Source: an archaeon GW2011_AR15
Lineage (GTDB): Archaea; Nanobdellota; Nanobdellia; Woesearchaeales; GW2011-AR15
Assembly: GCA_000830295.1 (NCBI GenBank)
Contig: CP010425.1
Location: 753,424-777,423, forward strand
DNA length: 24,000 bases
Direction of reading: 5' to 3'
Part shown: positions 9,538 to 17,511 of the stretch, one piece after another
How the letters are laid out: each line of letters starts with the position of its first letter
Position numbering within the stretch: position 1 is the first letter of the stretch
Translations under genes and position numbers: made by a program
The notes under the pieces: model-generated
Database searches by the model: none
Seen by the model: only the letters and a program-made list of their open reading frames with translations
Told to the model about the DNA's origin: nothing

Positions 9538-9628
9538 TGGGCCCGAGCGGATTCTCACCAATCCTTACCAGCATTGATGGGGCTAGTGTGTTTCCTCGCT
9601 TTGCTCGTCAAGCACACGTTATATAAAA
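9538..9628 (-). repeat. Type A tRNA-trailer insert ending in a 16-nt duplicate of the tRNA-Ile 3' end
   Basis: 9538..9553 is identical to 9629..9644 (tgggcccgagcggatt). The interior folds into two hairpins and is homologous to 16099..16180. Confidence 0.75.
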
Positions 9629-9752
9629 TGGGCCCGAGCGGATTTGAACCGCCGACCACTCGATTGCTGACTGATATGCTATCAGTCGAGCGCTCCATTA
9701 TCCCATCGCCCAGGTACAACCCAGGCGAGTGACCAGACTAAGCCACGGGCCC
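9629..9752 (-). tRNA. tRNA-Ile (anticodon GAU) with two introns (D-loop about 35 nt; canonical 37/38 about 15 nt)
   Basis: Minus strand: GGGCCCG TG GCTT[AGTCTGG..insert..]GAGC G CTCGA CTGATA[GCATATCAGTCAGCA]A TCGAG TGGTC GGCGG TTCAAAT CCGCT CGGGCCC A. All stems pair. No encoded CCA. Confidence 0.8.
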
Positions 9753-10245: not shown

Positions 10246-10349
10246 AAAAAGTGGGACTTCATTGATTCTCATCAAGCCTTTAAGAAAAGCCTTGAGGGAA
10301 ACAAATCCGGTTCTGTTAACAAGTTAACAGAACGACAAAATTAAAAAAG
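10246..10349 (-). repeat. tRNA-Phe trailer insert (type A-related 3' module) ending in a 15/16 duplicate of the tRNA-Phe 3' end plus T-run
   Basis: 10246..10261 matches 10344..10359 with one mismatch. Contains a perfect 11-bp inverted repeat at 10310..10333. The module AAAGGCTTGATGAGAATC aligns with GTAAGGATTGGTGAGAATC of the Ile insert. Confidence 0.7.
10343..10348 (-). terminator. Oligo-T run (T6) 1 nt after the tRNA-Phe discriminator
   Basis: Minus strand: AGGTCCC A C TTTTTT. Archaeal RNA polymerase terminates at oligo-T. Confidence 0.5.
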
Positions 10350-10459
10350 TGGGACCTCAGGGATTTGAACCCTGGACACCACGGTTACTAAATTCTCACC
10401 AGTTACAGACTGGTGGTGGTGCTTCAGCCGTGTGCTCTCCCAGGCTGAGCTAAGGTCCC
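10350..10459 (-). tRNA. tRNA-Phe (anticodon GAA) with a 36-nt canonical (37/38) intron
   Basis: Minus strand: GGGACCT TA GCTC AGCCTGGGA GAGC A CACGG CTGAAG[36 nt]A CCGTG GTGTC CAGGG TTCAAAT CCCTG AGGTCCC A. The intron contains the hairpin CACCAGT-CTGTA-ACTGGTG. Confidence 0.85.
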
Positions 10460-11862: not shown

Positions 11863-11976
11863 TAAGCCTCCGAAGATATCCTCACTTGCGTTCGGAAACC
11901 TTTCGGAGTCTTTAAATTAAGCCTCCGAAGGGTTAAGTCACTTTCGTTCCTGAACCCACGTAGCCTTAATAAATTA
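11863..11976 (-). repeat. Two tandem type B trailer units, each ending in a copy of the tRNA-Thr 3' end
   Basis: 11914..11932 is identical to 11971..11989 (19 nt). 11863..11875 is a third 13-nt copy. Each unit contains a GA-tandem/GNRA hairpin (11936..11951 and 11880..11895). Confidence 0.75.
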
Positions 11977-12077
11977 AGCCTCCGAAGGGAATTGAACCCT
12001 CGACCTGCGGATTGCTCCCAACCTTTTCTTAAAAGGCTGTTACAAGTCCGCCGCAATAGCCGCTATGCTACGGAGGC
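11977..12077 (-). tRNA. tRNA-Thr (anticodon UGU) with a 28-nt canonical intron
   Basis: Minus strand: GCCTCCG TA GCAT AGCGGCTA TTGC G GCGGA CTTGTA[28 nt]A TCCGC AGGTC GAGGG TTCAATT CCCTT CGGAGGC T. The intron contains the hairpin CCTTTT-AAG-AAAAGG. Confidence 0.85.
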
Positions 12078-12132
12078 ATTTTTGCCAAAGTAGCTTTCGA
12101 AAATCCTTGATTTTCGATGTGCTACGGAGGCA
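12078..12132 (-). repeat. Upstream insert beginning with a 13-nt duplicate of the tRNA-Thr 5' end
   Basis: 12120..12132 is identical to 12066..12078 (tgctacggaggca on +). Between the copies is a long hairpin: GTAGC-ACA-TCGAAAATC-AAG-GATTTTCGA-AA-GCTAC. Confidence 0.7.
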
Positions 12133-16024: not shown

Positions 16025-16098
16025 GGGGTTGTGGTCTAGCTTGGTATGATTCGCGGTTCGGGACCGCGAGGTCGGGGGTTCGAATCCTCCCAACCCCA
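16025..16098 (+). tRNA. tRNA-Pro (anticodon CGG), no intron
   Basis: GGGGTTG TG GTCT AGCTTGGTA TGAT T CGCGG TTCGGGA CCGCG AGGTC GGGGG TTCGAAT CCTCC CAACCCC A. Confidence 0.85.
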
Positions 16099-16180
16099 CT
16101 TTCAGGTACGCTTGAGCAAAGCGAAACGTACCTTCTCCGTCAATGCTGAAAAGGATTGGTGCGTAATCCTCCCAACCCCA
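16099..16180 (+). repeat. Type A tRNA-trailer insert ending in a 16-nt duplicate of the tRNA-Pro 3' end
   Basis: 16165..16180 is identical to 16083..16098 (aatcctcccaacccca). Homologous in block order to the Ile insert. Hairpins: GGTACG...CGTACC and GGATT-GGTGCGT-AATCC. Confidence 0.75.
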
Positions 16181-16186
16181 TTTTTT
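16181..16186 (+). terminator. Oligo-T run (T6) directly after the distal tRNA-Pro 3'-end copy
   Basis: CAACCCCA TTTTTT. The tRNA itself is followed only by CTTTC. Confidence 0.5.
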
Positions 16187-16241
16187 CGAGGTATTCAAGG
16201 TTCGGGACCTTGAGGTCTGGGTTCGAATCCCAGGAACCCCA
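16187..16241 (+). pseudogene. 5'-truncated tRNA-Pro(CGG)-like fragment: part of D-loop, anticodon arm, T-arm, 3' acceptor strand
   Basis: CGAGGTATT CAAGG TTCGGGA CCTTG AGGTC CTGGG-type T-arm (TGGGTTCGAATCCCAG) GAACCCC A. Stems are perfect but differ from the neighbouring tRNA-Pro. No 5' acceptor strand (GGGGTTC) or D-stem 5' strand is present upstream. Confidence 0.6.
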
Positions 16242-16364: not shown

Positions 16365-16473
16365 AGCGAGGGGGGGGACTCGAACCCCCGATGATCGGGA
16401 TCTACATGTCATAGCGTTAGCTCATCATCCCGGATGTTGCAGCCGATTGCCTTAGCCGCTTGGCGACCCCCGC
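16365..16473 (-). tRNA. tRNA-Cys (anticodon GCA) with a 37-nt intron at 37/38
   Basis: Minus strand: GCGGGGG TC GCCAAGCGGCTAAGGC A ATCGG CTGCAA[37 nt] CCGAT CATC GGGGG TTCGAGT CCCCC CCCTCGC T. The intron carries ATGATGA inside a GGGAT/ATCCC stem. Confidence 0.8.
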
Positions 16474-17451: not shown

Positions 17452-17511
17452 TGAGCCTGCGAGGAGAACTCACTTGCGTTCGTGCTCCTCTGGTCTCATT
17501 CGCTTCGCTTA
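17451..17511 (-). repeat. Type B tRNA-trailer insert ending in a 15-nt duplicate of the tRNA-Arg 3' end
   Basis: 17451..17465 is identical to 17511..17525 (atgagcctgcgagga). Hairpin GAGGAG-[CACGAACGCAAGTGAGTT]-CTCCTC; its 3' strand is part of the duplicated segment. Confidence 0.75.

Follow-up and report, generated by a model that had tools for sequence, protein, structure and literature searches.

Short hairpin-forming inserts followed by copied tRNA ends in a Woesearchaeales lineage: a candidate tRNA-end insertion module

The insert behind tRNA-Pro and its sister copies

What separates the tRNA-Pro(CGG) gene of the archaeon GW2011_AR15 from its terminator? In the stretch of 24,000 nucleotides (nt) that we analyzed (the window, to which all positions without a contig name refer), the intact gene lies on the plus strand at 16025-16098 (Rfam tRNA, 57.3 bits; ARAGORN). 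The segment behind it, 16099-16180, consists of a 66-nt insert (16099-16164, plus strand) and 16 nt that repeat the tRNA-Pro 3' end exactly (16165-16180, plus strand; repeat search). The duplicated target is AATCCTCCCAACCCCA, the last 16 nt of the gene (16083-16098). The copy AATCCTCCCAACCCCA spans T-loop nt 58 to the discriminator base, nt 73, and a T-run (TTTTTT, 16181-16186) comes next. The insert, which we call type A, was recognized by a covariance model termed R1 (72 bits) and by pair counts; it is composed of a 6-nt leader, a hairpin H1 (16105-16132), a linker, and a second hairpin H2' (16138-16161). Our preferred, though tentative, reading is that the segment represents one copy of a lineage-specific, non-autonomous tRNA-end insertion module that is fixed in orientation, duplicates its target, and is co-transcribed with the tRNA.

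Inserts are present at five of the seven tRNA genes of the window, and with those of related genomes they make up a family of short (~45-100 nt), strand-specific, hairpin-forming sequences at tRNA gene ends in one Woesearchaeales lineage. The 3'-side modules lie between the discriminator base and the oligo-T run of the tRNA gene. The end copies comprise the last 11-17 nt of the adjacent tRNA, starting in the T-loop or T-stem at nt 58-63 and ending at nt 73 (duplication lengths 16, 16, 15, 14, 13, and 11 nt, all with this same end point). At filled sites the tRNA gene is intact and its original terminator now stands behind the copy; all copies are in tRNA orientation, with a T-run after the copy. 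Exact copies of the gene's own end were found at Pro, Ile, Arg, and Thr (twice), and a decayed one at Phe, while none of 13 control tRNAs in unrelated loci had a copy of at least 11 nt of its own end within 250 nt. Tandem arrays occur, and the presence of the inserts differs between related genomes.

A second type A insert lies behind tRNA-Ile(GAU), a gene on the minus strand (9629-9752; Rfam, 47.8 bits) whose two introns interrupt the D-loop and the anticodon loop. This 75-nt insert (9554-9628, minus; R1, 94 bits) has H1 at 9586-9617 and H2' at 9556-9579 and is followed by an exact 16-nt copy of the tRNA-Ile 3' end (9538-9553, minus; repeat search). The initial annotation of this DNA had described a conserved module common to the Ile, Pro, and, in part, Phe loci, and the comparison bears this out: the Ile and Pro inserts hold CTTGA, GCAAAGCGA, TCAATGCTG, AAGGATTGGTG, and AATCC in identical order, and the 22-mer TCAATGCTGNNAAGGATTGGTG occurs exactly twice in the window versus 0.01 occurrences expected. 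As had also been stated, the type A junctions all fall at the T-loop sequence AATC. The Phe-type insert (10268-10349, minus; found by repeats, folding z = -3.65) has a related 3' module with an H2'-like hairpin, while its first hairpin is indeed replaced, as annotated, by a perfect 11-bp inverted repeat at 10310-10333; behind it is a decayed copy of the tRNA-Phe end, matching at 13 of 16 positions (10252-10267, minus; repeat search).

The type A arrangement is not an assembly artefact, because it recurs in several independent assemblies of the same population. At the tRNA-Phe locus of one assembly (L136, GenBank DUFY01000008.1, ~380-480), a gap bridged by NN deletes the 3' half of the tRNA together with the start of the insert. 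We rejected a loss of tRNA-Phe in this genome, since the loss is only apparent and reflects the gap; repeats evidently disturb the assembly there.

A second class of inserts, type B, is found behind tRNA-Arg(UCU) and tRNA-Thr(UGU). The 46-nt Arg insert (17466-17511, minus; repeat search, folding z = -2.9) forms a single long hairpin with the cap CGA-AC-GCAA-GU-GAG and is followed by an exact 14-nt copy of the tRNA-Arg end and then T8 (17452-17465, minus; repeat search). Behind tRNA-Thr (11977-12077, minus; identified by its anticodon UGU) there are two tandem inserts of 44 nt, B1 (11933-11976, minus) and B2 (11876-11919, minus), with folding z-scores of -2.0 and -4.1; B1 is followed by a 13-nt copy of the tRNA-Thr end (11920-11932, minus) and B2 by an 11-nt copy (11865-11875, minus), both found by repeat search. 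Each type B insert is one long hairpin (z between -2.0 and -4.1) whose 5' strand is complementary to the copied tRNA end, the 3' strand being the end copy itself up to the discriminator base. All share the mini-hairpin CGA-AC-GNAA-GU-GAG, which matches the inner part of type A H1 (CGA-GC-AAA-GC-GAG in the Ile copy and CGA-AC-AGA-GU-GAG in a copy behind a tRNA-Leu gene, described below). Six matches to this GA-stem-loop-GA core occur in the window against 1.9 expected, and five of the six are within inserts. A further match was seen in a related genome (L128, 14287-14320), where GAACCCAAGTGA, on the opposite strand directly behind tRNA-Cys and beside a complement of the tRNA end, fits the type B core; it may be a chance match, as about two are expected per 24 kb.

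The tRNA-Thr gene also carries an insert on its 5' side. Here, a copy of tRNA-Thr nt 1-17 (12115-12132, minus; 16/18 matching, repeat search) precedes a 36-nt insert (12079-12114, minus) with a perfect 9-bp hairpin, UCGAAAAUC-AAG-GAUUUUCGA, that folds much like the type B inserts (z = -4.5). A tRNA-Thr 5' insert of a similar kind is found in the relative L141 (8313-8375), with the hairpin AAAAUCAAAC-AG-GUUUGAUUUU; in both cases the order is a copy of tRNA-Thr nt 1-12/17, a hairpin of 9-10 bp, and then the real tRNA. These 5' inserts would be leaders, because a TATA-like box lies upstream of the copy. In another genome (L130, 12037-12085), an intron-bearing tRNA (CAU anticodon) has behind it T6 and an 11-bp perfect palindrome, GTGACATTAGC-TTAC-GCTAATGTCAC, a hairpin of the kind seen in the Phe-type insert that comes without a tRNA-end copy.

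Pairing and conserved positions of the insert

The initial annotation proposed that the type A insert is a module of two RNA-like hairpins and that the first of them keeps its shape by compensatory change. We examined the H1 pairs in five variants against 500 shuffles. The outer stem and the UU/AA pairs were paired in 100% of the cells, with two pairs changing on both sides (outer stems GUGUG/CACAC, GUGAG/CUCAC, and GGUACG/CGUACC), and this level of pairing and covariation was attained in only 2 of the 500 shuffles. Hairpin 1 therefore stands as it was drawn. In the Pro copy it reads GGUACG-C-UU-GA-GC-AAA-GC-GA-AA-CGUACC, and the bulged C, the UU/AA pairs, and the GA/GA positions are invariant among the variants. 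One inner pair changes from G-C to A-U in the Leu copy, a compensated change, and is broken (A.A) in the relative L125. The tandem G.A/A.G pairs that had been predicted in this hairpin find their bases opposed in all five variants and in the type B core, judging from the sequences compared.

The second hairpin did not survive in its original form. The GGATT/AATCC stem can be drawn with a loop of 6-7 nt, but it is 80% paired, shows zero covariation, and is broken in both Phe-type copies. Instead, TCAATGCTG and AAGGATTGGTG pair with each other to give H2', C(A/G)UCAAU-G-CU-GNNA-AG-G-AUUGGUG, which is 96% paired and has a GNNA loop; it includes an invariant G.G mismatch, and the adjoining pair is seen as U-A, G-C, or A-U. 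The folding energy of whole type A inserts is unremarkable (z = +0.6 to -1.5). Because of these energies and the small sample, the structural case for type A is suggestive and not statistically secure. The conserved non-Watson-Crick features indicate selection at the level of RNA or of a single strand, and such selection could serve propagation of an element or a function in the host, which are not exclusive.

The pattern of H1 invites comparison with the kink-turn (K-turn) and K-loop motifs bound by L7Ae. The hallmarks of a K-turn are tandem sheared G.A/A.G pairs beside a Watson-Crick stem and a 3-nt bulge opposite an uninterrupted strand. H1 shares with it the tandem G.A/A.G next to Watson-Crick stems and a pyrimidine-rich CUU before the GA of the 5' strand. 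It differs in that the opposite strand has two extra A residues that can pair with UU, leaving a 1-nt bulge in place of a 3-nt one. We rejected the K-turn reading on this ground: the 5' strand (stem-CUU-GA) faces 3' GA-AA-stem, and the UU/AA pairs are invariant. A canonical 3-nt-bulge K-turn, which the initial annotation had called not evident, is absent, only the C being bulged, and binding of L7Ae to H1 is unsupported and only a suggestion.

Other known RNA classes fit no better. Box C/D small RNAs (sRNAs) have a C box RUGAUGA, a D box CUGA, terminal pairing, and 10-12-nt guides to rRNA or tRNA. In the inserts the boxes have only partial look-alikes (UUGACGA and, within the Pro and Leu copies, CUGA), H1 pairs back on itself, the segment taken from the tRNA has the sense and not the antisense orientation, and no Rfam C/D family matched at E<=10; we rejected this class. 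A hammerhead has three stems around the core CUGANGA...GAAA. The CUUGA(CGA)...GAAA of the insert misfits this 7-nt core and Rfam gave no match, so that neither a hammerhead nor another known small ribozyme fitted. Searches of Rfam at gathering scores, at E<=1, and at E<=10 returned tRNAs only and no family for the insert. Archaeal bulge-helix-bulge (BHB) introns lie inside the mature tRNA sequence between BHB boundaries; at the junctions described here none was seen by eye, without a dedicated search, and the first tRNA copy is complete unspliced.

Filled and empty sites among relatives

A strict scan of a metagenome collection with the 22-mer identified two real further type A copies. In L125, from Hainich groundwater, the orthologous tRNA-Ile is followed by the module and an exact tRNA-end copy; in L126, the module follows an intron-bearing tRNA-Leu(UAG) and is itself followed by 15 nt copied from the end of that tRNA. 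A third match (L127) was discarded as a chance hit inside an open reading frame (ORF). L139 is a second assembly of the L125 population and differs by one single-nucleotide polymorphism (SNP) inside the end copy. L125 also bears an orthologue of the Phe-type module.

A more distant case, L140, was reached through Hel308 homologues (72% protein identity); its tRNA-Ile precedes two modules in tandem. In the first, CGGATTTGAAC is an exact reverse complement of the tRNA T-arm, and the module terminates in a 17-nt tRNA-end copy. In the second, H1 follows the type A pattern, GUGAG-C-UU-GA-GC-[9-nt loop]-GC-GA-AA-CUCAC, and the end copy that closes the module is partly deleted. When R1, which covers H1 and H2' and was trained on four close type A copies only, was used to search 171 kb of Woesearchaeales DNA, the best matches outside the training set were the L140 module (16 bits, E 0.14) and the Phe-like module of L125 (12.5 bits), and no further matches were obtained in this DNA. 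A degenerate-pattern scan of reference genome contigs returned 119 loci, all chance matches. In all, about 10 copies from four or five genomes make up the known sample.

Empty sites are found at the same tRNAs. In the syntenic L132 (TopoVI-A, 83% identity), tRNA-Arg, -Thr, -Phe, and -Ile are all empty and have only a T-run behind them. The tRNA-Ile of L141 has a 3' end identical to that of L140 and then T8 directly, so the two form an empty/filled pair. L124, a strain 99.5% identical to the window, is without the Phe-type insert and has 17 unrelated nt, TAATTAATAGTCTCTTA, instead; comparison of L124 3880-3893 with window 10248-10336 points to a replacement and not to a clean excision. In L134 and L138, close relatives by TopoVI-A, no tRNA lies next to that gene. 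In these comparisons the family is specific to one lineage of Woesearchaeales (DPANN archaea) and patchy among related genomes.

The orthologous tRNA-Ile loci of the window and L125 allow the conservation of the insert to be set against its surroundings. The insert is identical at 70 of 76 positions (92%), the end copy at 16 of 16, the tRNA with its introns at 93%, and the 5' flank at 80%, whereas the first 100 nt beyond the copy are 48% identical, roughly the level of unrelated sequence. The adjacent coding gene is clearly more diverged than the insert, with 63% identity in a global alignment that counts a 57-nt length difference, its aligned part being about three quarters identical as judged by eye. 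Among type A copies, the Ile and Leu copies are 89% identical, so that copies at different tRNAs resemble each other about as much as the orthologous Ile copies of two species do (94%), and the Pro copy is ~70% identical to the others. The D-loop intron of tRNA-Ile, compared between the window and L125 (643-767), shows paired changes (CCUGG...CCUGGG vs CUAGG...CCUUAG) that are consistent with a conserved intron helix.

Free-standing genes of the LAGLIDADG type adjoin tRNA or TopoVI genes in relatives without the inserts (L132 11301-11540 and 15266-16090; L141 1-1003 and 8704-9396; L128 11217-12020; L134 5362-6458). Two of these gene calls overlap the last 10-20 nt of the neighboring tRNA on the opposite strand, and the motif ATGTCCAGTGA or its complement recurs near them. 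Those abutting tRNA-Ile in L132 and tRNA-Phe in L141 were considered as full-length parents of the inserts and rejected, as no second tRNA-end copy lies beyond them.

The sequence derives from groundwater metagenomes of the Rifle aquifer, and the organisms named for close homologues of TopoVI-A and of the adjacent DUF2721 protein put it among the DPANN archaea (Woesearchaeota, or "Nanoarchaeota" as NCBI names them). The window itself is a segment of archaeal chromosome that encodes topoisomerase VI A and B, NMD3, a Hel308-type helicase, and RpoE, and its seven tRNA genes, as found by Rfam, include several with introns. ARAGORN mislabels several of the latter; tRNA-Phe(GAA) at 10350-10459, for instance, is called Ile. 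Between the end copy at tRNA-Pro and tRNA-Ala lies a diverged 3' part (D-loop through nt 73) of a gene resembling tRNA-Pro(CGG) (16190-16241, plus; repeat search). Its anticodon stem (CAAGG/CCTTG vs CGCGG/CCGCG in the intact gene) and T stem (CTGGG/CCCAG vs GGGGG/CCTCC) differ from the intact gene by compensatory changes, and the fragment therefore appears to derive from a different functional tRNA-Pro, either as a displaced fragment of the classical kind or as an old tandem gene. In three Woesearchaeales genomes (window 16365-16473, minus strand; L128 14173-14286; L130 13759-13875), the tRNA-Cys(GCA) intron has a conserved, C-box-like pattern, GGGAUGAUGA...GAUGA...GAUCCC, and may be an intron-borne K-turn or C/D-like RNA.

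Origin of the inserts

Transfer RNA genes are classic landing sites of mobile DNA, and those known there are kilobase-sized integrase islands and casposons. At the loci described here, the copied segment is always the adjacent tRNA's own, whereas the insert is common to different tRNAs. The copy must therefore have been synthesized at each site and not carried in by an element, unlike the case of integrase islands (PMC4383910).

We hypothesize that staggered breaks ~11-17 bp apart, followed by fill-in synthesis, would make the tRNA end a target-site duplication running from about T-loop nt 58 to nt 73, with the module landing between the discriminator and the oligo-T terminator. An enzyme anchored on the conserved T-loop box and nicking the two strands ~16 bp apart would yield copies that end exactly at the tRNA end, and the non-autonomous module would be moved by such an enzyme encoded elsewhere. 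The insert is very probably transcribed as a 3' trailer of the tRNA, because it lies between the tRNA and its only strong T-run, which is clearest at tRNA-Arg; RNase Z would then free a structured RNA. The bulged C, UU/AA, tandem G.A, G.G, and GA-stem-loop-GA core may be kept for mobility or for binding of a protein to the trailer RNA.

By analogy, a Cas1- or casposase-like integrase would be the best precedent for duplications of this size at tRNA 3' ends. Casposons produce 14-bp duplications at the 3'-distal part of archaeal tRNA genes and form tandem arrays that share a duplication (PMC4779613). The likeness to casposon and Cas1-Cas2 spacer integration lies in a target duplication of ~14-16 bp at a tRNA 3' end, made by staggered cuts and fill-in, and the repeat-insert-repeat order behind tRNA-Thr resembles a two-unit array. 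However, casposons are kilobases long, encode Cas1 and PolB, have terminal inverted repeats, and insert in both orientations, whereas the inserts are 44-102 nt long, occur in one orientation, and lack terminal inverted repeats, with no Cas1 or PolB in the region examined. MITEs, or miniature inverted-repeat transposable elements, are likewise short, non-coding, multi-copy sequences with a target duplication and with filled and empty sites among relatives, and one MITE-like sRNA element, in Pyrobaculum calidifontis, has a structured sequence resembling a small RNA and has proliferated (PMC6009581). The inserts differ from MITEs in having no terminal inverted repeats that we could see, strict tRNA-end targeting, a fixed orientation, and unusually long duplications.

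Several observations weigh against an insertion module. No transposase, Cas1, integrase, or reverse transcriptase was found in the ~44 kb around the window to which the search was limited (Pfam scanning of the 20 largest ORFs in the window, together with precomputed Pfam assignments for genes called on the flanking contigs); extending the flanks by ~10 kb and ~8 kb added zero tRNAs and zero mobility genes. The insert ends, as read, form no terminal inverted repeats, and the orientation is single, where casposons use both. The copy has a fixed 3' boundary (nt 73) but a 5' one that ranges over nt 58-63, and one L140 repeat continues for 15 nt beyond the tRNA, so a single fixed stagger misfits some cases. 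Simple cut-and-fill insertion does not explain the strand, present in type B inserts and in L140 insert 1, that is complementary to the duplicated tRNA end. The sample is small. Finally, a module 92% conserved across species beside an unalignable flank is also what host selection on a functional RNA would give.

The alternative that this last point raises is that the inserts are trailer RNAs selected by the host, either a protein-binding hairpin or, for type B, a mimic of the acceptor/T-arm, co-transcribed with the tRNA and released by 3' processing; as part of the same proposal, the copied tRNA end might itself be functional, for example, in mimicking tRNA ends or acting as a decoy for the enzymes that recognize them. 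The conservation of the Ile module (92% between species vs 48% for the flank), the compensatory changes together with invariant non-Watson-Crick positions, and the folding of type B into a minihelix-like hairpin, with the tRNA end as far as the discriminator for its 3' strand, are all in keeping with it. So is the precedent of tRNA-sRNA co-transcripts, namely the C/D box sRNA-tRNA dicistrons of Nanoarchaeum equitans and sR44-tRNA-Met of Pyrobaculum (PMC6009581). Like the inserts, these place a small, structured, G.A-rich RNA within a few nt of a tRNA gene, probably co-transcribed, including in a DPANN archaeon. Their RNAs, however, are guides with C/D boxes at the ends and come without a duplicated tRNA end, whereas the inserts bear such an end and have neither boxes nor guide complementarity. 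A conserved host function also sits poorly with the empty sites of L132 and L141, the different module at the same tRNA in L140, the loss in one strain (L124), a SNP in the copy within one population, and the decayed Phe copy, as well as with the lack of an Rfam match, a canonical K-turn, or C/D boxes. We consider this account unlikely; it leaves the origin of the copies unexplained, and it is compatible with an insertion module and not opposed to it.

The same loci could, second, be scars of tyrosine-integrase islands, in which the tRNA gene was regenerated, a fragment displaced, and later deletions left sequence adjacent to the att site. Such islands are recognized by a regenerated tRNA gene and a fragment of it, from the 3' or, rarely, the 5' end, that has been displaced and is oriented alike; their crossovers lie in the T-stem region or the anticodon loop (PMC4383910). 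The resemblance to the islands on which the Islander principle is based extends to fragments that start in the T-stem or T-loop, to the rare 5' fragments, and to tandem arrays (PMC4383910). The window adds the longer, diverged tRNA-Pro 3' fragment at 16190-16241 and the 5' fragment at tRNA-Thr, and the hairpin formed by the insert strand with the copied T-stem strand resembles the core site of a recombinase. Islands, however, have an integrase and an island body between the repeats and carry the regenerating tRNA segment with them, so that one family uses one target; the inserts have neither, the intervals measure 44-102 nt, no integrase was found in the ~44 kb, and the module occurs at Ile, Leu, and Pro. 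A module of ~65 nt with identical boundaries and the proper tRNA end at all three would need three independent, convergent decays, and a recombinase without DNA synthesis would be unable to copy a new tRNA end. Nor does a decaying scar account for an Ile module at 92% identity next to a flank at random level. The homology search against viruses and plasmids called for by the initial annotation was run as well: the type A 22-mer and the H1 pattern had no match in viral contigs, and BLAST of the Ile insert against phages and plasmids gave nothing or only chance matches of 22-23 nt, so that no meaningful match and no parent element emerged from these collections. Island scars thus appear quite improbable.

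A third possibility is retro-insertion, in which a trailer or other small RNA was joined or template-switched to a tRNA 3' fragment starting in the T-loop, reverse-transcribed, and recombined into the genome. This would place the breakpoints on features of the RNA, and they do fall at T-loop nt 58 in 7 of 11 copies, in the D-loop for the 5' copies, and at mature nt 73; the variable duplication length, as in target-primed reverse transcription, and the fixed orientation would follow too. Every tRNA, however, counts 16 nt from nt 58 in the T-loop to the discriminator, nt 73, and a fixed-stagger DNA enzyme anchored on the T-loop box would give the same boundaries. With CCA at none of the junctions, no poly-A or similar tail, and no reverse transcriptase in the region examined, we regard this route as very unlikely. 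Last, error-prone repair of tRNA-gene breaks, made for example by homing endonucleases, might have left templated filler with local direct and inverted duplications. This would suit the perfect palindromes of 7-11 bp and inverted T-arm copies inside several inserts and the LAGLIDADG genes that abut tRNA genes in related genomes, but it is highly implausible, as local templating fails for the same H1/H2' at Ile, Leu, and Pro and for the core common to types A and B, and no tRNA-end copy lies beyond the LAGLIDADG genes.

Taken together, the evidence leads us back to the insertion module as the preferred, if tentative, reading. No description of such modules was found in the literature searched, and the family looks like a small insertion element hitherto undescribed. 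A bolder version is unlikely on present evidence: that these are active miniature elements that use the segment from the tRNA T-loop to the 3' end as a landing pad, each insertion duplicating that segment to build repeat-insert-repeat arrays, with the insert expressed as a tRNA-linked structured RNA.

If the preferred reading is true, a tiny element would here persist in the very small DPANN genomes by a new route, as a passenger in the tRNA transcript. Under the bolder version, should a Cas1-like integrase drive the insertion, the loci would be a natural, non-CRISPR (clustered regularly interspaced short palindromic repeats) instance of repeat duplication at a "leader", here the tRNA, with a bearing on the origin of CRISPR arrays; should an RNA intermediate drive it, they would be the first retroposon of archaea resembling short interspersed elements (SINEs). 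In annotation, these loci would mislead programs that detect islands from a tRNA gene paired with its displaced fragment, and tRNA finders set the gene ends wrongly. The inserts also add to the tRNA-linked small RNAs a candidate new class, marked by conserved non-Watson-Crick motifs, and they provide a tractable setting in which to look for the enzyme that makes duplications of 11-17 bp at the ends of tRNAs.

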